Origin: Candidatus Falkowbacteria bacterium | GTDB lineage: Bacteria; Patescibacteriota; Patescibacteriia; Patescibacteriales; UBA12465 | Length of the DNA stretch: 64,000 nucleotides | Direction of reading: 5' to 3' | NCBI GenBank assembly: GCA_026396805.1 | Contig: JAPLVZ010000012.1 | Span: 8,127-72,126, forward strand | In this document: piece after piece, positions 21,475-38,588 of the stretch | How the letters are laid out: each line of letters begins with the position of its first letter | How positions within the stretch are numbered: position 1 is the stretch's first letter | The notes under the pieces: model-generated | What the model was told of the DNA's origin: nothing | Databases searched by the model: none | The model's input: the letters and a program-made list of their open reading frames with translations, nothing else | Made by a program: the position numbers and the translations under genes

Positions 21475-24400
21475 ATGCTTTCAGAATTACTGAAACAATT
21501 GAATAAGGAACAGCAAACAGCCGCGACTCACGATCAGGGGCCGCTTTTAATAGTCGCCGGCGCCGGTACGGGCAAGACCACGGTTCTGATAAACCGCTTG
21601 GCTTATCTGATAATGGAGAAGAAAATAAAAACTGACGAAATTCTGCTCCTGACTTTCACGGAAAAGGCGGCCGGGGAATTGGAAGAGAGAGCGGACAAGA
21701 TTTTGCCTTACGGCTATGTGGATTTATGGATTAATACTTTCCACGGGTTTTGTGAACGAGTACTAAGAGAATTCGGTTTGGATATCGGGCTTAATCCCGG
21801 TTTTAAACTCTTAAATTCGACCGAGCAATGGGTCTTAGTCAAGAAAAATTTAAATCGTTTCAATTTGGATTATTATCGGCCTCTCGGCAATCCGACTAAA
21901 TTTATTTCGGAGCTGTTGCGGCATTTTTCCCGCCTGAAGGATGAAAATATTTCTGCCGCGGAGTATTTGAAGTATGCGGAAGAGTTGGAGTCTGATCAGG
22001 ACGCCAGATTGAGCGGGAAAAAAATAGGTAAAAAAGTGCTGGTCCTGCCAAAAAAGAAGCCAGTGGCGGCTAAAACGGCCGGCGAAGAAGATGACGACGG
22101 CGAAGAATTGGAAATCGGACGCATTCGAGAATTGGCCGACGCTTATCATACTTATAATCAATTATTGTTGGAGAATAATTTTTTGGATTTCGGCGATTTG
22201 ATCGTTTATGTCCTTAAATTATTCAAAGAGCGGTCAAATATTCTGAAATTTTATCGCGCGAAATTTAAATATATCATGGTGGACGAGTTTCAGGATACGA
22301 ATTGGGCGCAATATGAGTTAGTGAAGATGCTGGCCGCGCCGAAAAATAATTTGGTGGTTGTGGGCGATGATGATCAGTGTCTGCCGGGCGATGCTTTAGT
22401 TTTGACTAAAACCGGACAGAAAAAAATTAAAGACATCAAGACGGGCGATGAAGTGGCGACGGCCGTCGGAAAAGGAAGTTTGAGTTATAGTCGGGTCGGG
22501 CATGTTAATAAAACAAAAAAAATCGCGTTGTTATTATCATTCGTTACTAAATCCGGCAAAAAAATAACAGCGACCGATAATCATAAAATGTTCTGTTTCA
22601 TGCCCAGAATCTCCGGTAAGGAATATTTTTATGTTTATCTGATGTTCAAACAGGAATTAGGCTGGCGTTTGGGCATGACTAATGATTTGGCGCTGCGCTT
22701 AAGGCTGGAAAGGTCGGCTGATAATATTATCGCCGTTGGCTGTTATCAAACTATGGCCGAAGCGCGCTATCAGGAAGTATTATTATCTTTGAAATATGGC
22801 ATCCCCACGGTTTGTTTTCAGGAGAGAGACGGTATAATGGATAAAAAGATTTGGAGTTCCAAATTATATAAAGAATTGGATGTGGCGGCCGGTATTCATC
22901 GTTTAGCCCAAGATTTGAATATTGATTTAGAAGCCTCACCCTATTGTTTGGAAGCGGTCAATCGCGGGAACAAATTGCGGATAAAAATCCATTTGGAAAT
23001 GTGTTATCGGAAATATCATTCCAAGGTCGCCAAGAACGGTTTTCTTATTAATCCCGCCGTGGCACATTTATTATCAATCGACACTAGCGATCAACTGACG
23101 ATTCTTAAATTAGAGAAGATGGGTTTTAAAATCAATCCCAGCCAAACCGGTCGGAGATTGCGTTTGACCAGTCCGGATTTAAGCTATTTAGGAAAAATAG
23201 CGCGCCAGGTTCAAAAAGAAATCGGCGGATTCATAGAGCCGCAGATGAAAATTGGCAAGGTTAAAGAAAAATTTTTAAAATCTATAATCGTCCCGGCTAA
23301 AAATATTTTTCCCGGCATGTATTTGCCGATTGTGACGGATGGGGGCGTTATTTATGATCAGATTGTCAGCCGTCAAGAAAACAGGCGAACAGGTTACGTT
23401 TATGATTTAGAAGTTAATCGGACTCATAATTTTGTGGCCAACGGCATCTTAGTCCACAATTCTATTTATAAATTTCGCGGCGCTTCGCTTTCTAATATTA
23501 TGCAGTTCAAGGATGATTATCCGAAAGCCGAAGAGATTATTCTGACGGCCAATTATCGTTCGCGCCAAGCGATTTTAGACTATGCTTATCGCTTTATTCA
23601 AAACAATAATCCCAATCGTCTGGAAACCAGATTAAAGATCGATAAGAAACTTGTCGCTCAAGGCGAGATCAATAAAATTAAATCCGCGGGGCCGGCCGTG
23701 AAGTTTTTGAATTTTGAATCGGCTCATGACGAGCTGTCATACGTCGCGCGGCGGACAGTCGAACTTCATGAAACGGATAACGGTCAAGGGGCGAGCACGG
23801 GAGAAACTAATTGGTCGGATTTCGCGATTCTCGTGCGCGCGAACGATACGGCCGAAGCTTACGTTAAGGAATTGAGCCGTCAAAATATTCCCAACCAATT
23901 TATGTCTTGGCGCGGACTTTATTATAAGCCAATTATTTTAGATATCTTAGCTTTTTTCAGGTTACTGGATAATTATCATGAATCCGCCGCGCTTTTTCGC
24001 GTTTTGAATATGGAAATATTTAAAGTGGCGCACCTTGATCTCGTGAATATCAATAAAACGGCGGTGCGCAAAGTTTGGTCTTTGTATGAAGCTTTAAAAA
24101 ATATCAACGCGATTTCCGGCGTCAGCCCCGAGAGTGTCAAGAATATCAATAAGCTTTTGGCGCTGGTTGAAGAGTTTTCAAAAATGGCGGCGACAGCCAA
24201 ACCGACTAAGATTTTTTTGCGCTTCGCTTACGATTCCGGGCTGCTCGTCGGGCTAGATCATGACCGGGACCTGGAATTATTTTCATTTTTAAACCAGCTT
24301 TATCAGAAGATAAAGACCATGGAAGAAACCGAACCGGATTTGCGCTTGGGAGAATTTCTTTCGGCGATAAATATGGAGCTGGAAGCGGGTGAAACCGGTT

Positions 24401-25656
24401 CTTTAAAACTGGATTTCGCCGACAGTGACGCGGTTAAAATTATGACGGTCCATGGCGCCAAAGGCCTGGAGTTTAAATACGTTTTTATTGTTAACCTGGT
24501 GGATAAGAAATTCCCGACCGTCGCCCGCAGCGAAAAAATTTCTATTCCCGACGCTTTGGTTCGCGAAAAATTGGCGGAAGCGTCAGACGCGCATCTGGAA
24601 GAAGAACGCCGATTGTTCTATGTGGCGGCGACGCGCGCTAAAGCTGAATTATATCTGACCGGTGCCAAAGACTACGGCGGAGCGCGTGAGAAGAAGCCGT
24701 CGCGCTTTATTGCCGAGATGGGACTCACGAGTGCCATCGGGCCGGAACTGGCGCTAAGCGAGAAAAACGAATTTTTGCGCGATTTGCATTATCTTAACGC
24801 CCGCGAACTGGCGCCGCTTGAAAAAAGCGCGGCGGAAAAATATCCGCTCCCGGATAAATTTTCTTTTTCGCAATTGGCGGCCTATTCAATTTGTCCGCTC
24901 CAGTATAAATACGCTTTCATTTTAAAAATTCCCGCCTCCACCGATAAGGCCTCGCTCATTTTCGGACGGGTGCTCCATAATACTTTATATAATTTCTTAC
25001 TCCCCTTCTTAAGCGAGCGAAAAATACTACAAGGTGATTTGTTCGCCGGATCGGAGGCATCCGCCGGTAAAAACGCGTCGGGAAAAACTGGAGCCAATCT
25101 TCTAAGCGAAGCGAGATTAATGGAATTATACGCGGAGTTCTGGCGGGCGGACGGTTACGCCTCCAAAGAAGAGCGGGAGAAATATAAGATTAAGGGCCGT
25201 GACGCTTTGAAAAAATTCTTGTCTGCTTATCAAGTGGCGTCGAGCAAGACGGAAATATTATTTTTGGAGAAGAAATTTTCTTTTAAGATCGGCAGTGACG
25301 TCATTAAAGGAGCGATTGACCGCGTTGATAAGCTCGGTGATGGAACTTTAGAGGTTATAGATTATAAAACCGGAAAGAATCGGGCGAAATTGGAGTTTAA
25401 GGATAAGCGCCAATTAATCCTGTATCAATTGTTTCTGGAAGAATTTTTGGGAGTTAAAGTCAGCGCCTTGAGTTATTATTATTTGGAGAGCGGCGAAAAG
25501 ATTTCGTTTATGGCGACGGCTAAAGATATCACTAAATTGCGCGTCAGTGTCATTGAGGAAATCGCGGCTATTAAGAAACGGGATTTTACACCGACGCCCT
25601 CGCCAATGTGTCAGTTCTGCGATTTTAATTCAATTTGTGAGTTTAGAGAGGTTTAA
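21475..25656 (+). CDS. UvrD/PcrA-type SF1 helicase fused to a C-terminal PD-(D/E)XK nuclease with Fe-S cysteines (AddB/Cas4-like), interrupted by an intein
   Basis: 1393 aa. Motifs are AGAGTGKTTV (Walker A), MVDEFQDTN, VVGDDDQ|SIYKFRGAS (motif III split by the intein), the nuclease motif IDRVD...EVIDYKTGK, and Cys ligands C...CQFCDFNSIC. Confidence 0.9.
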   Translation: MLSELLKQLNKEQQTAATHDQGPLLIVAGAGTGKTTVLINRLAYLIMEKKIKTDEILLLTFTEKAAGELEERADKILPYGYVDLWINTFHGFCERVLREFGLDIGLNPGFKLLNSTEQWVLVKKNLNRFNLDYYRPLGNPTKFISELLRHFSRLKDENISAAEYLKYAEELESDQDARLSGKKIGKKVLVLPKKKPVAAKTAGEEDDDGEELEIGRIRELADAYHTYNQLLLENNFLDFGDLIVYVLKLFKERSNILKFYRAKFKYIMVDEFQDTNWAQYELVKMLAAPKNNLVVVGDDDQCLPGDALVLTKTGQKKIKDIKTGDEVATAVGKGSLSYSRVGHVNKTKKIALLLSFVTKSGKKITATDNHKMFCFMPRISGKEYFYVYLMFKQELGWRLGMTNDLALRLRLERSADNIIAVGCYQTMAEARYQEVLLSLKYGIPTVCFQERDGIMDKKIWSSKLYKELDVAAGIHRLAQDLNIDLEASPYCLEAVNRGNKLRIKIHLEMCYRKYHSKVAKNGFLINPAVAHLLSIDTSDQLTILKLEKMGFKINPSQTGRRLRLTSPDLSYLGKIARQVQKEIGGFIEPQMKIGKVKEKFLKSIIVPAKNIFPGMYLPIVTDGGVIYDQIVSRQENRRTGYVYDLEVNRTHNFVANGILVHNSIYKFRGASLSNIMQFKDDYPKAEEIILTANYRSRQAILDYAYRFIQNNNPNRLETRLKIDKKLVAQGEINKIKSAGPAVKFLNFESAHDELSYVARRTVELHETDNGQGASTGETNWSDFAILVRANDTAEAYVKELSRQNIPNQFMSWRGLYYKPIILDILAFFRLLDNYHESAALFRVLNMEIFKVAHLDLVNINKTAVRKVWSLYEALKNINAISGVSPESVKNINKLLALVEEFSKMAATAKPTKIFLRFAYDSGLLVGLDHDRDLELFSFLNQLYQKIKTMEETEPDLRLGEFLSAINMELEAGETGSLKLDFADSDAVKIMTVHGAKGLEFKYVFIVNLVDKKFPTVARSEKISIPDALVREKLAEASDAHLEEERRLFYVAATRAKAELYLTGAKDYGGAREKKPSRFIAEMGLTSAIGPELALSEKNEFLRDLHYLNARELAPLEKSAAEKYPLPDKFSFSQLAAYSICPLQYKYAFILKIPASTDKASLIFGRVLHNTLYNFLLPFLSERKILQGDLFAGSEASAGKNASGKTGANLLSEARLMELYAEFWRADGYASKEEREKYKIKGRDALKKFLSAYQVASSKTEILFLEKKFSFKIGSDVIKGAIDRVDKLGDGTLEVIDYKTGKNRAKLEFKDKRQLILYQLFLEEFLGVKVSALSYYYLESGEKISFMATAKDITKLRVSVIEEIAAIKKRDFTPTPSPMCQFCDFNSICEFREV
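22378..23460 (+). mobile_element. Helicase intein (361 aa) without an obvious LAGLIDADG pair
   Basis: CLPGDALVLT at the N-terminus, block B TDNHKMF, and C-terminal VYDLEVNRTHNFVANGILVHN followed by Ser+1. Both junctions are in frame with 21475. Confidence 0.85.
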
Positions 25657-28848: not shown

Positions 28849-29793
28849 TTACTTTTTTAATCTTTTTTGATTATACTTCGCCAATTCTAATCTAACTTTC
28901 TCCTCCATATCGTCACGAGACACGGCGCCGGCGTTATTTAATACTTTTTCCTTATTAAAGATTAGAAACTCGTTCAATTCATTAACCCAATCTCTCATAT
29001 ACATTAATCTTTCTTTAACGCTTTGCAGTTCGGCAAAAGACAAGAATTGCTCTACCAGTAAATTCAGTCTCTTAAGCTCCAATTCTTCCAGATAATTTTT
29101 AGCGATTTCCGCCTGTTCGCGAGTAATAATTTCCCCTGGCCAATTAGTTAAACCGAGGTTTTCCTTAGAGCTGTCTATCCGACTGTTAACTATCTCCGCG
29201 TCCGTCAGTCCGCTGATGGCATAATGGAATTTATTCTGCACCATCGCAAAAAATTTCTGGGCGTAATCGGTTTTAGGGCTATAATCAACGCTAAGGGCAA
29301 AAATGTCTCTGACTTTTTGATAGAAATTAGCCTCCGAGGTTCTTATCTTTCGGATTCGCTCTTTCAATTCCTGAAAGTATGATTTGGCGACCTTACCGCC
29401 GGCTAATCGCTCATCGTCCATCACGAACCACTTGATAATATACTCTTTTAGCTTTTGAGTCGCCCAGATGCGGAATTGCGTGCCGCGGAGGGAATTAATC
29501 CGATATCCGACCGAGATAATCGCGTCTAGGTTATATAAATTTACGGGTCTTTTCACCTCCTTATTTCCTTCTTTTTGAACTATCAAGTATTCCTTGATAG
29601 TTTGGTTTTCGCTAAGTTCAGCCTCATTAAACACATTTTTTAAATGTAGATTAATATTAGCGACGCCGCAATTGAATAACTCTGCCATTTGAACCTGACT
29701 TAACCAAACAGTCTCATTTTCAAGCTTAACTTCCAGTTTCATCTTCCCGTCTTCCGTGCTGTAAATAATGATTTGATTGTTTTTGTCATTCAT
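28849..29793 (-). CDS. RhuM-family protein (full length)
   Basis: 314 aa. The family-typical blocks WLSQVQMAELF, YNLDAIISVGYRINSLRGTQFRIWATQKL and DDERLAGG are present. ggaggcgga (SD) lies upstream of the ATG. Confidence 0.85.
   Translation of the reverse strand: MNDKNNQIIIYSTEDGKMKLEVKLENETVWLSQVQMAELFNCGVANINLHLKNVFNEAELSENQTIKEYLIVQKEGNKEVKRPVNLYNLDAIISVGYRINSLRGTQFRIWATQKLKEYIIKWFVMDDERLAGGKVAKSYFQELKERIRKIRTSEANFYQKVRDIFALSVDYSPKTDYAQKFFAMVQNKFHYAISGLTDAEIVNSRIDSSKENLGLTNWPGEIITREQAEIAKNYLEELELKRLNLLVEQFLSFAELQSVKERLMYMRDWVNELNEFLIFNKEKVLNNAGAVSRDDMEEKVRLELAKYNQKRLKK
29578..29602. repeat. Intragenic hairpin in RhuM copy 1: aactatcaag (5-nt loop) cttgatagtt
   Basis: Perfect 10-bp arms. 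The frame was checked against the ORF, and it encodes TIKEYLIV. Confidence 0.9.
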
Positions 29794-30589: not shown

Positions 30590-31585
30590 ATGAAAAAAGT
30601 AAAAATCAGCGGAATTAATAAAAGCCTGGCAAATCCAAGCGATTATGGGAATCTATTACATGAGTTAAAAGGAATTATTATTAAAGGACAAAACAAGGCC
30701 TATAAAGCCATAGATAATATTAAAGTCCAGACGTATTGGCAGATAGGCGAACGGATAGTTAGGGAGGAATTAAAAAATAAAGATAGGGCTGAATATGAAA
30801 AGTATTTAATAGAGAATCTGGCCGTAGATCTAAATATTGGCAAACGCGTTTTATATGAAATAGTTAAATTTTATAGAGCTTATCCAATTGTGCAGACAGT
30901 GTCTGCACAATTGAGCTGGTCTCATTATGTTGAGTTAATTGAACTAAGTGATAATAAAGAACGTCAATTTTACGAAAGTAAGATAGTAGCTAACTCCTGG
31001 TCTATCCGGGAACTTAAAGAGCAGATTAAAAATCGTCTCTATCAGAAAACCGATGACAAAGAAAAGGAAAAAATGTTAAAAACCAAGCTTCCGGCTGTAG
31101 TCGACCTGCAAAAAATATTCAAGCCCGATTACGATTTTAATTTTTTAGAAATAGCGCCCAGCCATCAAGAAAAAGAGCTGGAAGATAAAATCATTTCCAA
31201 TATCGAATATTTCCTCAAGGAATTAGGTAATGATTTTATGTTTCTGGGTCGACAAGTACCCATATTAATCGATAATGAGAAGCATTATATCGATTTAGTC
31301 TTGTATCATCGCGGCATTCCTTGTGTTATTCTAGTCGATCTTAAGGCTGATAAACTAGATAGCCGCGATATCGGTCAAATGAATAAATATATTGGCTATT
31401 ATCGCCATAATAGACAGTATGTTTACGAAAACGACACTATTGGCCTTATTATCTGTAAAGAACTGGGTCATGAAGAAGTAATCTATGCTTTAGACGGTTT
31501 AGAGGAAAAGATATTTGTTTCTCTATATAAAACAAAACTGCCAAGCGAAGAGAGAATTAAACGAGCGGTGAGAGGGATAAATTAG
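30590..31585 (+). CDS. DUF1016/YhcG-family PD-(D/E)XK nuclease-like protein
   Basis: 331 aa. The N-terminal block is IVQTVSAQLSWSHYVELI. The C-terminal core is YIDLVLYH...VILVDLKADKL (D...DxK). Confidence 0.8.
   Translation: MKKVKISGINKSLANPSDYGNLLHELKGIIIKGQNKAYKAIDNIKVQTYWQIGERIVREELKNKDRAEYEKYLIENLAVDLNIGKRVLYEIVKFYRAYPIVQTVSAQLSWSHYVELIELSDNKERQFYESKIVANSWSIRELKEQIKNRLYQKTDDKEKEKMLKTKLPAVVDLQKIFKPDYDFNFLEIAPSHQEKELEDKIISNIEYFLKELGNDFMFLGRQVPILIDNEKHYIDLVLYHRGIPCVILVDLKADKLDSRDIGQMNKYIGYYRHNRQYVYENDTIGLIICKELGHEEVIYALDGLEEKIFVSLYKTKLPSEERIKRAVRGIN
30885..30913. repeat. Intragenic hairpin in the DUF1016 gene: caattgtgcagaca g tgtctgcacaattg
   Basis: Perfect 14-bp arms. The frame was checked, and it encodes PIVQTVSAQL. 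Confidence 0.9.
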
Positions 31586-31724: not shown

Positions 31725-32686
31725 ATGAGAGAAAAACCGATAATTTCAATAGTGATTCCAATCTATAACGAAGCGGAGAACATTCCGAGATTTTTTAGGT
31801 CCTTGGCGCAAGTTTTGTCCGGTCTGGAAGAAAAATACGAATGGGAAATAATATTTATTGACGACGGCAGTTGTGATTCTTCGGCTGAAGAATTGCGTAA
31901 GCTTAACGACGGCCGGATCCAGGTTTTGGAATTTTCCCGTAATTTCGGGAAGGAGGCGGCGCTAAGCGCCGGCCTTAACCAGGCAAGAGGCGAAGCGGCT
32001 CTAATGATTGACGCGGATTTTCAGCATCCCTTGGAGTTAATTCCGGAGTTTATCGCCAAGTGGGAAGCGGGCGCGGAAGTCGTTATCGGTATTAGAAAGA
32101 GGAATAAGAAGGCCGGTCTGATTAAGAACGCCGGTTCTTTTATTTTTTATCGGATTATTCGCCGTATTTCAACCGTTGATATTATACCGAACGAAACGGA
32201 TTTTCGTCTAGTCGGGCGGGAAGTCATTGACGCGTTTAATCGTCTCGGCGAGTCCAAGCGGATGACTAGAGCCCTGATAGACTGGTTGGGTTTTAGACGC
32301 GATTACCTTTATTTTGAAGCGCCGGAGCGGACTAACGGTCGCGCCGGTTATAATTTTTCTAGCGGTTAGCGCTTAATAGCTTTGTTTCTCTTAGTCTTAT
32401 TCCCCTAAAACTGGTGGGATATCTGGGCATTTTCATAATACTGACAATCGGTCCTTTCGGGCTTTGTGTTATGCTAGGTAAATATGTTTTTGATTGGACA
32501 TATGCCGTCAGTTTTTCCGGTCCGGCTCAGCTCGCCCTTCTGATAGCGTTTCTTATCGGTATTGTTTTATGCTCACTCGGCTTAGTGGCTTTATATATTG
32601 CCCATATTCATAATGAAGTATTAGGCCGGCCGCTTTATATCATTCGGAGAGAAAGTAATAAAATGAATACGCATGATCAAATTTAG
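31725..32686 (+). pseudogene. GtrB/DPM1-like polyprenol-phosphate GT2 glycosyltransferase, split by a frameshift near 32355-32370
   Basis: ORF 31725-32369 carries the GT2 domain (IVIPIYNEAENI, IDADFQHP) and stops at TAG 32367-32369. A different frame then continues RLALNSFVSLSLIPLKLVGYLGIF... into ORF 32414-32686. That is the amphipathic and TM tail normally contiguous in this family. Confidence 0.7.
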
Positions 32687-33678: not shown

Positions 33679-36621
33679 ATGAAAATATTCATCTCATATC
33701 CGCCGCTGATTTCGGAGAAAGGAATTCCGCTTTTGAGCCAGAATCGCCAATTCCAGTGGTTCAACAGCCCGACCTATATCTATCCGGTTATCCCGGCTTA
33801 TTTGGCGACCCTACTGAAAGAGGCGGGCCATGAAGTCGTCTGGGACGACGGCATCGCTGAGGGTTTGCGCTATGGAGACTGGGAGAAGCGCCTATTGTCG
33901 GCGCATCCGGATTTGATTTTTTTTGAAACCAAGACTCCAGTCGTCAAACGGCATTGGGCGATTATCAATGATCTGAAAACTAAATTAGCGGCTAAGATCG
34001 TCCTGTTGGGCGACCATGTCACGGCCGAGCCGGAAGAAAGCTTGCGTTATTCCAAAGTTGACTATGTCCTGGCCGGGGGCGACTATGATTTCGGCGGCTT
34101 GAACCTGGTTCGGTTTTTAGCCGGCGAAGCGGAACTGGAGCCGGGCTGGCACTGGCGGACGGGTGGCGAGTGGCAGGCGACGAGCGACAATCAGGAGATT
34201 AACTGGCGGGACGGAGAATTCAAGGCTTTGAAAGCCGCATCTAGCGGCGAGAGGCAGAATTATGCCGCCCAGAATCTAGATACCTTGCCCATGATTGACC
34301 GCGAGCTGACCAATTGGCGGCTTTATGCCTATAAGAATGGCAATTTTAAATACATGCCCGGCGCCTATCTGATGAACGCCCGCGATTGTTGGTGGGGGAG
34401 GTGTAGTTTCTGCTTGACCGGTGAAGCGCAAGTTTTAACCATCAAAGGCGCTAAAAATATAGCGGATATAGAAAAAGGAGATCGAGTTTTAACCCATTTG
34501 GGAAATTATAAAAAAGTTAATGAAACTTTAAAAAGAAATTATGAGGGCGAACTGATCGAGATAAAGACTAATTGTCTTATGCCTTTTAAAATAACGCCGA
34601 ATCATCAAGTGCTTAACTTGCCCTTGAAAGATTTAAGCCGTTGTTTAAAAGTTGGCCAGGCCGGCTATCTTTGTAAAAGCAATAATGATTTTTCTAAGCG
34701 CTTAGATTGCGCTAATTGCGAGCTCCCTAAACCCTATTTAAATTATAAGCCACAATATATAGAAGCGGGACAGATCAGTAAGGGCGATTATCTAGCCGTA
34801 CCGATAAACAGAGAAATTATTAAAACTGCCAAGTTAGATTTGAAAAAAATATTAAATCTACAACCAACAATCATCAACACTTGGAAAAAAATTGCCGATT
34901 CGCTTATCAAAGAGATTTTAACTCTTAACCAGCAAGGTAAAAGCGAAAGAGATATTTCAGTTCTTCTTAAAATTGACCGAGAAACCGTTCATCGCTATAT
35001 ATCTTTAGAAAAAGCCGAGCAATTAATCAATAAAAGTAATCCGCTTAAATATAAAGGTGGAAAAATAAGTTTTGAGGGAGGAAAAAATTGGCTGCCGGCG
35101 GACATAGTTTTAAAAGATGATGTTTATAGATTATTTGGTTATTACTTGGCGGAGGGCTGCGTTTCTAAACTAAAGAATCGGCCGAATTCCCTGGTTATCA
35201 GCCTTACTTTTAATCAGAAAGAGCGGGAATATATTGCCGATGTTAAAAAAATATTTGAAGATATTTTTAAGGTTGAGGTTAATATTAATCAGAATAAAGT
35301 TAACCATACAACCCAAATTACAGTCGGAAATTCTTTGCTGGCCAAAGTATTTAAGAATTTATTCGGCGATAATTGTTATAATAAAAGTCTGCCGGAATTT
35401 ATTATGAAGGCCGAGAGAGTAAAACAAGTAGAACTACTGCGCGGAATTTTTCGGGGTGATGCTCATTATCGACAGAGAGGAACTAGAGCGGAATATATTT
35501 TAAGTTCGGCCTCGGACAGCCTGTCGTCCCAATTAGTCATGCTTCTTTTAAGATGTTCGGCTATACCGAGCGTGAGGCGGACTAAGATAAGGGGGAAAAT
35601 GACTAAAGAACAAAATATTATTACTCTTTCCAGTATTGATATTATTAATTTGTTTGCCGAGAAAAAAAGGGTGGAAAAAGTTGAATCGCTTTATAAAAAA
35701 GGCTTTATTATCGGAAATTATGCTTATTTACCCGTAACGCGACTAAAAAAAGAGCAATATAAAGGAGCGGTCTATAATCTATCGGTTGATAAAGACCATA
35801 GCTACACGGCTAATTTTGTCGGCGTCAGTAATTGTTCCTGGACCACGCTTTTCCCCGGGCAGACTTTCCGCGTCCGCTCGGCCCGTTTGGCCTTGGATGA
35901 AGTCGGCCAGCTGATTGATTTGGGCGTCAAGGAAATCATGGAAGATTCCGGCACCTTGCCGGTCGGCCCTTGGCTGGAAGAATTTTGTAACGGCATGATA
36001 GAGCGCGGCTACAATAAAAAGATCGTCATGAGTTGTAATATGCGCATCAGCGGAATTAAGGATCCCGAAATCTGGAAGCTAATGAAGCGTGCCGGTTTTC
36101 GCTTTATCTTATTCGGTTTAGAATCGGCTAATCAAAAAACCTTAGACGCGATTAATAAAAATCTGAAAGTTGAAGAAATTGAACCGGGGCTAAGAATGTG
36201 CAAGGAGGCCGGTTTAGAGCCTCATATTACCGCCATGATCGGCTATCCTTGGGAAACTTATGAAGACGCTAAAAAAACCGTGGAATTAGCGAAGGATTTA
36301 TTTAAAAAGAACTGCGTTAATACCCTTCAGGGCACGGTTTTAATTCCATATCCGGGCACGCCGCTTTATGCGAAATGCTGGGCGGAAGGTTTATTGAATT
36401 TTACCGATTATGATCGTTTTGATCAAAGGGAGCAGGTTATGAAATGCCCCTTAACGACTGAACAAGTCAAGGAACTCACCCAGGGGCTATATAAGGCCTT
36501 TATGAGCCCTAAATTCGTCATTAATAAGCTAAAATCAATCAGAAGCTGGAGTGATATTAAATTCTTATGGATGGCCGGGATGAAGGTTCTAGGGCATTTG
36601 ACTGATTTCAGCAAGAAATAA
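33679..36621 (+). CDS. Class B (cobalamin-binding-domain) radical SAM enzyme, interrupted by an intein
   Basis: The extein is ~506 aa. It has an N-terminal B12-binding-like Rossmann region (DLIFFETKTP...VLLGDHVT) and a cluster motif DCWWGRCSF|C split by the intein. The C-terminal half is a radical SAM TIM barrel (FGLESANQKTL). Confidence 0.85.
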   Translation: MKIFISYPPLISEKGIPLLSQNRQFQWFNSPTYIYPVIPAYLATLLKEAGHEVVWDDGIAEGLRYGDWEKRLLSAHPDLIFFETKTPVVKRHWAIINDLKTKLAAKIVLLGDHVTAEPEESLRYSKVDYVLAGGDYDFGGLNLVRFLAGEAELEPGWHWRTGGEWQATSDNQEINWRDGEFKALKAASSGERQNYAAQNLDTLPMIDRELTNWRLYAYKNGNFKYMPGAYLMNARDCWWGRCSFCLTGEAQVLTIKGAKNIADIEKGDRVLTHLGNYKKVNETLKRNYEGELIEIKTNCLMPFKITPNHQVLNLPLKDLSRCLKVGQAGYLCKSNNDFSKRLDCANCELPKPYLNYKPQYIEAGQISKGDYLAVPINREIIKTAKLDLKKILNLQPTIINTWKKIADSLIKEILTLNQQGKSERDISVLLKIDRETVHRYISLEKAEQLINKSNPLKYKGGKISFEGGKNWLPADIVLKDDVYRLFGYYLAEGCVSKLKNRPNSLVISLTFNQKEREYIADVKKIFEDIFKVEVNINQNKVNHTTQITVGNSLLAKVFKNLFGDNCYNKSLPEFIMKAERVKQVELLRGIFRGDAHYRQRGTRAEYILSSASDSLSSQLVMLLLRCSAIPSVRRTKIRGKMTKEQNIITLSSIDIINLFAEKKRVEKVESLYKKGFIIGNYAYLPVTRLKKEQYKGAVYNLSVDKDHSYTANFVGVSNCSWTTLFPGQTFRVRSARLALDEVGQLIDLGVKEIMEDSGTLPVGPWLEEFCNGMIERGYNKKIVMSCNMRISGIKDPEIWKLMKRAGFRFILFGLESANQKTLDAINKNLKVEEIEPGLRMCKEAGLEPHITAMIGYPWETYEDAKKTVELAKDLFKKNCVNTLQGTVLIPYPGTPLYAKCWAEGLLNFTDYDRFDQREQVMKCPLTTEQVKELTQGLYKAFMSPKFVINKLKSIRSWSDIKFLWMAGMKVLGHLTDFSKK
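34411..35832 (+). mobile_element. Radical SAM intein (474 aa) with HTH and LAGLIDADG endonuclease domains
   Basis: CLTGEAQVLT at the N-terminus, block B TPNHQVLN, LAGLIDADG-like LFGYYLAEGCV and LLRGIFRGDAH, and an HTH-like GKSERDISVLLKIDRETVHRYI. It ends VYNLSVDKDHSYTANFVGVSN followed by Cys+1. Both junctions are in frame with 33679. Confidence 0.87.
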
Positions 36622-36806: not shown

Positions 36807-37940
36807 ATGGAAAATAAGCAAATAAAACGTGATATTGAAAAAAATATCAGAGATTGGTTATTTAAAGGTAAAATAATCATTCTTTATGGCGCGCGCCAAG
36901 TTGGTAAAACAACCTTGGCTAAAAAGCTTTTAAGAGAGCATGGTCGTCCGACAGATTATTTTAATTGCGAAATTTCCTCCATCAGATCGGCCTTGGAAAA
37001 AGAAGATCCGACAGCCTTAAAAAAGTTTTTAGGCGACGGTCGTTTGATTGTTTTAGATGAAGCGCAAAAAGTAAGTAATATCGGATTAATTTTAAAACTC
37101 CTGTTAGATACCTATCCGAATATACAGATTGTCGCCACCGGTTCATCTTCTTTTGATTTGGCCAATCAAGTTAATGAGCCCTTGACCGGCCGCGCCTTAG
37201 AATTCACGCTTTATCCTTTTTCATTGCGTGAACTTAAAAATTTCTATAAAAATTATGAGCTTGAAGGGCAATTGGAAAATTTATTGATTTATGGATTATA
37301 TCCGGAAATAGTAAAAAGCGATTCGACCAACGCTCGCCAGCTTTTAGATAATTTAAGCAATAAATATTTGTATCAAGATATTTTAATTTTTAATCGGATT
37401 AAAAAGTCCGGTTTGATTGTTAAATTACTGCAGCTCTTAGCTTTGCAGATCGGGAACGAGGTATCGATTAATGAATTGGCCGTTAATCTGCAATGCAGTC
37501 GCGATACGGTTGTTAATTATTTGGATATTTTGGAAAAAGCGTTTATTATTTTCCGTCTGCGCGCCTATAGCCGGAATCAGCGTAAGGAAATCGTCAAAAA
37601 ACAAAAAATTTATTTTGTTGATTTGGGAATCAGGAATAGTTTAATCAGCCGTTATAATGAACTGGCGGTTCGTGATGATGTCGGCGCTTTATGGGAAAAT
37701 TTTTGTATTATTGAGCGTTTGAAAAAAATTCAGGCCGATAATTTATATTGTCAAAAATATTTTTGGCGCGCAATCAGTCAAAAGAAAGTTGATTATGTAG
37801 AAGAATACAACGATCGTCTGGACGGTTATGAATTTAAATGGGGTAAAGGCAAGGCGTCGGCGCCTAAAGAATTTTTAGCTTATAAAAACAGTCGCGTTAA
37901 TTTGATAAATCGTGATAATTACCAAGAATTTTTAACATAG
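36807..37940 (+). CDS. AAA-type ATPase with a DUF4143-like C-terminal domain
   Basis: GARQVGKTTLA (Walker A) and VLDEAQ (Walker B). The architecture is typical of the AAA_14/DUF4143 family. Confidence 0.8.
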   Translation: MENKQIKRDIEKNIRDWLFKGKIIILYGARQVGKTTLAKKLLREHGRPTDYFNCEISSIRSALEKEDPTALKKFLGDGRLIVLDEAQKVSNIGLILKLLLDTYPNIQIVATGSSSFDLANQVNEPLTGRALEFTLYPFSLRELKNFYKNYELEGQLENLLIYGLYPEIVKSDSTNARQLLDNLSNKYLYQDILIFNRIKKSGLIVKLLQLLALQIGNEVSINELAVNLQCSRDTVVNYLDILEKAFIIFRLRAYSRNQRKEIVKKQKIYFVDLGIRNSLISRYNELAVRDDVGALWENFCIIERLKKIQADNLYCQKYFWRAISQKKVDYVEEYNDRLDGYEFKWGKGKASAPKEFLAYKNSRVNLINRDNYQEFLT

Positions 37941-38070: not shown

Positions 38071-38562
38071 ATGGAAAACCTAAATTCACAAATTGTAATA
38101 TATAAAGATCAAAATGGACATATCAAAATCGATGTTCGTTTTGATGGTGATACTGTCTGGCTGACCCAAGATCTTATATCAATTTTATTTAATAAAGCAA
38201 AATCTACTATAAACGAACATATAAAAAATATATATGCTGAAAGTGAGTTGTCAGAGCTAAGTTCAATGAGAAAATTCGGAAATTCCGAATTTTCTACAAA
38301 ACCTACTAATTATTACAACTTAGACCTAATTATCGCTGTTGGCTATCGGGTAAAATCACCCCAAGGCACTATTTTCCGCAAATGGGCCACCGAGAGGCTC
38401 TCGGAATATATTGTTAAGGGTTTTGTATTAGATGATGAGAGGTTAAAAAACCCGGATTTGCCGTTTGATTATTTTGAGGAATTAACCCGTCGCCTTGCGG
38501 ATATTCGCACAGAAATCTTGATGATATTAAATTTTTGTGGCGGGCGGGAACGAAGGTATTAG
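38071..38562 (+). pseudogene. RhuM-family gene truncated after ~147 codons
   Basis: The N-terminal 147 aa are RhuM-like (WLTQDLISILF, YNLDLIIAVGYRVKSPQGTIFRKWATERL, DDERLKNP). Homology stops at ...ADIRTE (~38513), and the remaining reading is out-of-frame radical SAM tail. Confidence 0.75.
38269..38295. repeat. Intragenic hairpin in RhuM copy 3: agaaaattcgga aat tccgaattttct
   Basis: Perfect 12-bp arms. The frame was checked, and it encodes RKFGNSEFS. Confidence 0.9.
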
Positions 38563-38588
38563 GGCATTTGATGGATCTTAGAGAGTAG
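38520..38588 (+). pseudogene. Relic of a radical SAM gene 3' end
   Basis: Reads DDIKFLWRAGTKVLGHLMDLRE*, compared with SDIKFLWMAGMKVLGHLTDFSKK* at 36550-36621 (16 of 22 residues identical). DNA similarity is clear over ~50 nt. Confidence 0.65.

Follow-up and report, generated by a model that had tools for sequence, protein, structure and literature searches.

A probable homing intein at the third cluster cysteine of a Patescibacteria radical SAM enzyme, at an insertion site shared with other radical SAM families

Among the closest described systems to the element reported here is the intein of the oxygen-labile MoaA protein of Pyrococcus abyssi. According to the reviews PMC10663303 and PMC3922620, which cite Callahan et al. 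2011, a disulfide between a native extein cysteine at position -3 and the first intein residue, Cys1, blocks splicing until it is reduced. We analysed a 64,000-nucleotide stretch of DNA, called the window, from Candidatus Falkowbacteria bacterium (contig JAPLVZ010000012.1 of assembly GCA_026396805.1, positions 8,127-72,126, forward strand), in which a gene for a radical S-adenosylmethionine (SAM) enzyme is interrupted by an intein of 474 amino acids. The MoaA intein is like that of the window in having a radical SAM host with an oxygen-sensitive iron-sulfur (Fe-S) cluster, an extein cysteine at -3, and Cys1. However, it resides in a different host enzyme, in an archaeal hyperthermophile, and its redox control is experimental, whereas the window intein is known from sequence. 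Judging from the -3 numbering, the MoaA insertion site would be CxxxCxx/C (slashes mark splice junctions throughout). MoaA also carries a C-terminal CxxC cluster motif. Apart from reviews that treat the redox trap of P. abyssi MoaA, the searchable literature yielded no paper on CxxxCxxC as an intein site or hot spot.

Two NCBIfam models describe other intein-containing families. One, NF038136, covers Rv2578c family radical SAM proteins that contain an intein, and the part of its profile that represents the C-extein has the +1 cysteine of CxxxCxx/C as its very first position. NF045703 (tetraether lipid synthase Tes, intein-containing) matches the endonuclease region of the window intein with E = 1.7e-14. 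The window protein scores 52.6 against the NF045703 cut-off of 1700 and gives no match to NF038136. Thus, it belongs to neither family, and the host families differ. Among inteins of known structure, PI-PkoII (2cw7), PI-SceI (1vde), PI-PfuI (1dq3) and TliVMA (7qss) resemble the window intein in combining a Hint domain, a double LAGLIDADG endonuclease and an extra DNA-binding region. Unlike it, they have DNA polymerase, V-ATPase or ribonucleotide reductase hosts and a penultimate histidine, they are without the four-cysteine insert described below, and their identity to it is 10-15%.

Removal of residues 245-718 from the precursor (Table 1) leaves a spliced protein of 506 amino acids. In what follows, C237, C242, F244 and C245 are numbered in the spliced protein, and C1 to N474 in the intein. 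Thousands of homologues match the spliced protein at E <= 1e-10. Among them, the best 120 orthologues are 63-82% identical to it, are mostly 482-534 amino acids long, and carry source names of Patescibacteria, Falkowbacteria and Moranbacteria radical SAM proteins. When the precursor is aligned with nine intein-free orthologues (64-82% identical), the sole large gap corresponds exactly to residues 245-718. This gap and the edge codons show that the intein had been delimited to the base, and at its correct length of 474 amino acids, in the original prediction, which was made from the sequence of the window before any database was searched.

The intein-free orthologues read RDCWWG[RK]C[ST]F/C[SA]WTT at the junction, which confirms the proposed boundary DCWWGRCSF/CSWTT. 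C237, C242 and C245 are invariant, both in the nine aligned proteins and in a set of 34 sequences, and in both alignments the exteins retain every invariant residue of the host family. In an alignment with the MCR glutamine methylase MgmA (PDB 9ccb), RDCWWGRCSFC falls opposite HRGC-PGNCTFC and is one residue longer. Because C237, C242 and C245 align with the CxxxCxxC of 9ccb, these three residues constitute the cluster motif, in a Cx4Cx2C variant. The invariant C245, aligned with the third cysteine of the 9ccb motif, is therefore the third cluster cysteine and also Cys+1 of the C-extein, as had been proposed. Spacing in the host family is Cx4Cx2C (CWWGRCSFC) instead of the canonical Cx3Cx2C, and it is Cx7Cx2C in an intein-bearing relative, P0170 (DCWWRQNNGCTFC).

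Pfam Radical_SAM (PF04055) matches the spliced protein with 62.6 bits (cut-off 29.5). In the full precursor, the match is confined to the C-extein part. Gene callers and family models can mis-annotate intein-bearing radical SAM proteins. The insertion is in frame, is absent from orthologues, and leaves contiguous conserved host sequence when removed, as is the case for class 1 inteins. With C242 at -3, Cys1, and a radical SAM host, the junction also has the arrangement of the MoaA redox trap.

The residues of a class 1 intein are all present (C1, T62-P-N-H65, N474 and Cys+1). Pfam detects LAGLIDADG_3 twice (39 bits), Intein_splicing at 36.2 bits (cut-off 35.8) and Hint_2, and the NCBIfam models intein_Nterm and intein_Cterm also match. 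PI-PkoII is the only solved relative found by sequence. An AlphaFold (AF2) model of the intein, built on seven family members (mean predicted local distance difference test score (pLDDT) 81.4, predicted template-modelling score 0.77), matches PI-PkoII, TliVMA, PhoVMA, PI-SceI and PI-PfuI with E values of 7e-21 to 7e-12. The next Foldseek matches are free LAGLIDADG enzymes, and I-DmoI and I-SceI are among the hits. A Hint fold is thus indicated by Intein_splicing, Hint_2 and the likeness of the model to intein structures. The two LAGLIDADG motifs recognized in the original prediction are borne out by Pfam; they carry the catalytic acids E248 and D350, and the fold matches agree with the alpha-beta-beta-alpha-beta-beta-alpha fold of a double-motif enzyme. 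The family alignment also recovers the splicing blocks A, B, F and G. Blocks F and G depart from the consensus, with Ser473 in place of histidine and Asn456 (VYN) in place of the usual aspartate.

Two additional modules are located between block B and the endonuclease. One is an insert with four cysteines, C-x9-C-x11-C-x2-C, which is kept in L006, L008, L009, P0170 and P0121-123 and is present also in inteins of dCMP deaminase genes. Its fourth cysteine is changed to tyrosine in L005, and the whole module is absent in P0138 and P0143. The insert may be a zinc ribbon; pLDDT in the AF2 model is <50 across it. The other is a helix-turn-helix (HTH)-like module, which had also been proposed from the sequence and is upheld by weak profile matches at intein residues 134-198 (HTH_SB, HTH_38, GerE; Cbp1 HTH at E = 4e-4), by four helices predicted at 163-206 in the AF2 model, and by strong conservation of SERxISxxLKIDRETVHRY in relatives. 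It is absent in P0127 and P0130. The P0130 intein, whose host is an AmmeMemoRadiSam protein, has also lost both LAGLIDADG catalytic acids (YYCAKG, LECNG) and is an example of endonuclease decay inside the same site family.

Table 1. Features of the intein-bearing radical SAM gene, in window positions
Feature	Coordinates	Strand	Description and basis
Precursor open reading frame	33679..36621	+	980 amino acids and stop: N-extein 244, intein 474, C-extein 262
N-extein	33679..34410	+	Rossmann-like B12-binding-type domain, linker, cluster cysteines 1 and 2
CWWGRCSF	34387..34410	+	Cys-8 (C237) and Cys-3 (C242) of Cx4Cx2C; ends at splice residue -1 (F244)
Intein	34411..35832	+	474 amino acids, class 1 type, embedded LAGLIDADG homing endonuclease; Pfam, NCBIfam, AF2 model, Foldseek
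Cys1	34411..34413	+	Codon TGC
Block A, CLTGEAQVL	34411..34437	+	Cys1 nucleophile; family alignment
Block B, KITPNHQVL	34588..34614	+	TxxH = T62, H65; invariant in family alignment
Four-cysteine insert	34642..34719	+	C78, C88, C100, C103; optional family module, intein residues 78-103
HTH-like module, SERDISVLLKIDRETVHRYI	34897..35028	+	Helices 163-206; weak profile matches, AF2 helices, lineage conservation
LAGLIDADG motif 1 (block C), LFGYYLAEGCV	35131..35163	+	Catalytic E248; Pfam, alignment
LAGLIDADG motif 2 (block E), LLRGIFRGDAH	35434..35466	+	Catalytic D350; Pfam, alignment
Blocks F and G, VYNLSVDKDHSYTANFVGVSN	35770..35832	+	D462/H463, penultimate Ser473, terminal Asn474; alignment
Asn474	35830..35832	+	Codon AAT
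Cys+1	35833..35835	+	Codon TGT; third cluster cysteine, C245 of spliced protein
C-extein	35833..36618	+	Remaining radical SAM barrel and C-terminal helices; Pfam Radical_SAM, AF2, Foldseek

This element is very probably a selfish one: a class 1 intein with an intact double-motif LAGLIDADG endonuclease, which would splice by the standard route and release an active homing enzyme. We infer both activities, that of splicing from the conservation of the exteins and of the splicing residues. The 980-amino-acid precursor would be translated first. Cys1 would then undergo an N-S acyl shift at F244/C1, Cys+1 would attack the thioester, Asn474 would cyclize, and an S-N shift would join ...RDCWWGRCSF to CSWTT..., so that the Cx4Cx2C motif is restored in the 506-amino-acid enzyme. 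The freed 474-amino-acid protein would act as a site-specific endonuclease on intein-free alleles and thereby copy the intein into them (homing). Its candidate target is the intein-free junction, ...GGGAGGTGTAGTTTC/TGTTCCTGGACC....

The choice of position would follow from the host motif. Few stretches of any radical SAM gene are as constrained as this one, which also provides the cysteine that the intein must have at +1. A constrained motif with an obligatory cysteine makes a stable homing site, and imprecise loss would be lethal to the gene. Because the two junctions of a Hint fold are adjacent, Cys-8, Cys-3, Cys1 and Cys+1 of the precursor may be close together and form a possible four-thiol site. 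The original prediction also held that the precursor cannot bind the cluster until splicing occurs, which may or may not be so. If the element is selfish, any redox coupling of splicing would be a by-product, at most a secondary adaptation.

Comparison of alleles points to recent homing and to purifying selection on the intein. A scan of metagenome DNA, the kind of survey that had been recommended for this site, recovered two further copies of the 474-amino-acid intein, on contigs L005 (84% amino acid identity) and L006 (66%), each inserted at this junction in a member of the same host family. A scan of GTDB genomes added a Patescibacteria metagenome-assembled genome, L008 (71%). A word-indexed protein search with the intein gave 13 matches and missed these close alleles. 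All four alleles, including that of the window, are exactly 474 amino acids long and keep C1, T62, H65, E248, D350, D462, H463, S473 and N474.

Between the window and L005, the intein is 84.4% identical in amino acids and 82.9% in nucleotides, with a synonymous divergence (dS) of 0.88 and a ratio of nonsynonymous to synonymous divergence (dN/dS) of 0.10. The corresponding identities are 63.6% and 61.3% for the N-extein, and 73.7% and 70.4% for the C-extein, with synonymous sites saturated in both. Sliding-window nucleotide identity to L005 steps up at the N-terminal junction, from 45-66% to 80-88%. Thus, the intein is more conserved than its exteins, as is typical of a mobile element. An active homing element is expected to look like this, that is, to postdate the divergence of the host genes and to be under purifying selection over its whole length.

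Judged by length, none of the best 120 orthologues contains an intein; therefore, its occupancy is sporadic. More distant inteins occur at the same point in the host family in P0138 (42% identical to the window intein), in P0170 with its Cx7Cx2C spacing, and in L009. P0143 and L026 carry inteins at the same point of an archaeal relative that reads RDCWYGKCTF/C. Related inteins were found at 80 loci of viral contigs, with 0 at a radical SAM motif, and hence there is no evidence for a phage vector.

Some observations weigh against an active homing element. No clear co-conversion tract is seen in the C-extein in sliding identity to L005, and there is no excess there over L006 or L008. Outside the intein's own lineage, its nearest neighbours in cluster space are all <=42% identical to it, too distant to point to a donor. 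Moreover, Ser473 and the VYN of block F mean that splicing competence is not guaranteed from sequence alone. This last doubt is tempered because most inteins at this site (39 of 43, see below) have a residue other than histidine there and because the inteins are under purifying selection. Natural inteins without a penultimate histidine are known to splice.

Base composition favours the homing reading, as the intein is AT-rich (35.6% GC) within a GC-richer gene (52.9% in the N-extein and 44.9% in the C-extein). As a separate observation, the host gene itself looks mosaic. Its N-extein, at 52.9% GC, has 54-78% nucleotide identity to the closest intein-free orthologue, L001, and part of its C-extein, at ~42-45% GC, has 85-93%. 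Recombination may have had a breakpoint close to the intein.

The insertion site recurs in other radical SAM families. A profile of seven inteins was searched against 1.84 billion cluster representatives, and the best 150 proteins were analysed. These contain 152 complete inteins, 42 of which are preceded by C-x3-C-x-x or C-x4-C-x-x and followed by cysteine at +1. When P0170 is added, 43 of 153 inteins reside at C-x3-7-C-x-x/C, and they represent at least four radical SAM lineages among the best 150 profile matches. The hosts are AmmeMemoRadiSam proteins (18 inteins), several subfamilies of B12-domain radical SAM proteins (15 including P0170, plus the window), Rv2578c-like proteins (4), a second group, PflA-like (4), and singletons (2). 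GTDB genomes add cases of this site in Omnitrophota, Latescibacterota, Saccharibacteria, Methanomassiliicoccales, Woesearchaeota and others.

In the word-indexed search, the closest relatives of the window intein are also inteins at the same position in other radical SAM families, with junctions such as GCAHGCVW/C in the Rv2578c/mobile-pair-B-like family and GCNLRCLH/C in AmmeMemoRadiSam enzymes. The inteins of P0121-P0130 and P0137-P0271 share with that of the window the CxxxCxx/C site, Cys1, Cys+1, the LAGLIDADG type and, mostly, a penultimate residue other than histidine. They are 25-42% identical to it and often have the same HTH and four-cysteine modules. Their hosts differ from that of the window, being AmmeMemoRadiSam, other B12-domain, Rv2578c/mobile-pair-B-like or PflA-like radical SAM proteins. 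Among the 42 inteins and the window, the closest relative is another intein of the same site in 41 of 43 comparisons, and 10 of those 41 relatives sit in a different host superfamily. This pattern suggests that a related group of inteins moved between radical SAM families while its insertion point was kept.

Other relatives interrupt catalytic cysteines in unrelated enzymes, namely the PCQ motif of a C5 DNA methyltransferase and the DTCH motif of an endonuclease-IV-like protein; another is inserted just upstream of the HAE motif of dCMP deaminase. Therefore, a catalytic cysteine that doubles as the +1 nucleophile is the general rule for elements of this kind and no peculiarity of this host gene. 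Inteins are common at CxxxCxx/C, a hot spot that has been catalogued before, and the window locus is one further case. The finding is consequently much less unusual than the original prediction assumed, and a specialist would regard the single locus as ordinary, since it adds another homing intein to those that interrupt conserved catalytic motifs. The survey shows that inteins are concentrated at CxxxCxx/C in several radical SAM lineages, which makes it a major hot spot, and that their block G is unusual. It is this site-wide pattern that is worth most, comprising the hot spot, the relatedness of its inteins and the loss of the penultimate histidine.

Of the 43 inteins at the radical SAM site, only 4 have a penultimate histidine, compared with 81 of 104 at other sites (Fisher P = 4e-15). 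The remaining 39 have Ser, Gly, Ala, Lys or Cys. Counted per cluster of 40% identity, histidine is found in 2 of 25 clusters at the radical SAM site and in 65 of 79 elsewhere. When the threshold is lowered to 30% identity, only two clusters are left for the radical SAM site, and therefore the histidine losses are not independent events. We dropped histidine depletion as independent evidence of adaptation, since its signal collapses at this level of clustering. The loss may be a trait of the lineage, or it may be tied to the thiol-rich junction.

As an observation apart, two NuoI/ferredoxin-like proteins, P0198 and P0205, carry two inteins in a single CxxCxxCxxxCP motif, before its first and third cysteines. 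The intein before the third cysteine has cysteines at -3 and -6 and a Ser-Asn end, and that before the first has a His-Asn end.

The original prediction proposed that redox- or metal-sensitive splicing could act as a post-translational switch on the pathway of the enzyme. Cys-8, Cys-3, Cys1 and Cys+1 would form a disulfide or bind Zn, Fe or an Fe-S cluster, and splicing, with the maturation of an oxygen-labile radical SAM enzyme that depends on it, would occur only under reducing conditions and be selected for. Such a switch is plausible and would be compatible with a selfish element, but we consider it unlikely. The P. abyssi MoaA disulfide between Cys-3 and Cys1 offers a precedent (PMC10663303, PMC3922620), and the window has the same Cys-3/Cys1/Cys+1 geometry; yet this geometry follows automatically whenever an intein is inserted before the third cysteine of any CxxxCxxC, and the case is one of analogy with MoaA and of junction chemistry. 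The frequent loss of the penultimate histidine (4 of 43 against 81 of 104) might be an adaptation to a junction rich in thiols or metal, but with two clusters at 30% identity the pattern is phylogenetically non-independent. Most orthologues are without the intein, which argues that the pathway requires no such regulation, and an intact homing endonuclease with horizontal spread explains persistence without benefit to the host. An extended form of the proposal is improbable as well. It holds that a widespread related group of inteins is specialized on Fe-S-ligand cysteines and hops between unrelated radical SAM families without changing its site, that the penultimate histidine was given up because the junction has four thiols, and that this junction, by binding metal or an Fe-S cluster or by forming disulfides, gates the maturation of oxygen-labile radical SAM enzymes by redox or Fe-S status; the ferredoxin-motif inteins of P0198 and P0205 would be a similar case. 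The window intein is an experimentally tractable bacterial counterpart of the archaeal MoaA redox trap, with four natural alleles and a host that is probably an anaerobe.

It is highly improbable that the intein is a decaying relic that no longer splices, in which case the gene would be inactivated or would yield precursor only. The serine in place of the penultimate histidine and the asparagine in place of the block F aspartate would fit such a relic. However, no stop or frameshift breaks the 980 codons, the exteins have lost none of their invariant residues, the intein has a dN/dS of 0.10, and four diverged alleles all have a length of exactly 474 amino acids. The penultimate residue is other than histidine in 39 of 43 inteins at the site, in many host families. 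Even harder to credit is a domesticated intein, in which the HTH and four-cysteine modules of the released protein or of the precursor would serve the host instead of homing, for example by binding DNA to regulate the glycan cluster. Both modules are extra to a minimal intein, and members of the lineage show strong conservation of the HTH helix; but extra DNA-binding modules are usual in intein endonucleases, including those of the closest structures (PI-PkoII, PI-SceI and PI-PfuI), and these modules are also found in relatives inserted in unrelated host genes. Retention of both LAGLIDADG catalytic acids, together with horizontal transfer, argues for a working homing enzyme. A selfish homing intein fits better than these alternatives because its endonuclease is intact and under selection, the intein is more conserved than the host gene, its distribution is sporadic, and its site is shared by unrelated families.

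The host enzyme appears to be a B12-domain radical SAM protein. Pfam B12-binding (PF02310) matches the N-extein with 25.3 bits, below the cut-off of 32.1. An AlphaFold model of the spliced protein (pLDDT 84.4) has a disordered cluster loop, as expected without cofactor. Its best structural match is AprD4 (6fd2; template-modelling scores 0.67/0.74), followed by MgmA (9ccb), OxsB (5ul4) and TsrM (6wte), all of which share its fold and domain order. AprD4 is a B12-domain radical SAM diol dehydratase that acts on a sugar. The window host differs from these enzymes in its Cx4Cx2C motif, in its occurrence in Patescibacteria-type genomes, to which its family is specific, and in its location between genes for family 2 glycosyltransferases (GT2). 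The best profile match is HpnJ (TIGR03471), at 128.9 bits. We rejected this identity, since the score is far under the equivalog cut-off of 577.6.

GT2 genes flank the host gene in the window, as they do at its orthologous loci L001, L003 and L004, and genes nearby encode an epimerase/dehydratase, a methyltransferase, a DegT aminotransferase and a CDP-alcohol phosphatidyltransferase. It is a reasonable inference that the enzyme carries out a radical modification of a sugar or lipid-linked glycan. The original prediction had offered a glycan or a phosphonate pathway. The first is favoured by the conserved GT2-radical SAM-GT2 synteny. Pfam scans of the neighbouring genes and orthologous loci found no phosphonate-specific family, and the phosphonate assignment was therefore rejected.

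Several minor features of the surrounding DNA were also observed. A GT2 reading frame of 214 amino acids (31725-32369, +) is followed, after a 44-nucleotide gap, by a hydrophobic reading frame of 90 amino acids (32414-32686, +). The pair resembles a single GtrB/DPM1-like gene that a stop codon or a frameshift has divided. The glycan cluster also contains scattered genes of the RhuM family and of YhcG/PDDEXK type (28849-29793, -; 30590-31585, +; 38071-38562, +), and in L001 and L002 a RhuM gene likewise lies upstream of the orthologous cluster.

The window contains no intein-free paralogue of the host gene. A 25-codon relic at 38505-38579 (+), NLDDIKFLWRAGTKVLGHLMDLRE with its stop codon, resembles the 3' end of the radical SAM gene and resides 1.9 kb downstream of the intact gene. 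Ahead of it are a DUF4143/AAA_14 ATPase gene (36807-37940) and then the truncated RhuM gene (38071-38562). In L005, an AAA_14-type ATPase gene is also found just downstream, but the two are 26% identical. This arrangement suggests that a larger recombination event brought in the current allele or rearranged it.

A second intein, of 361 amino acids, is present in the window at 22378-23460, within a reading frame (21475-25656, +) for a UvrD/AddA-like helicase-nuclease. Its junctions read VVGDDDQ/CLPGD...ILVHN/SIYKFRGA, with a canonical His-Asn end and serine at +1.

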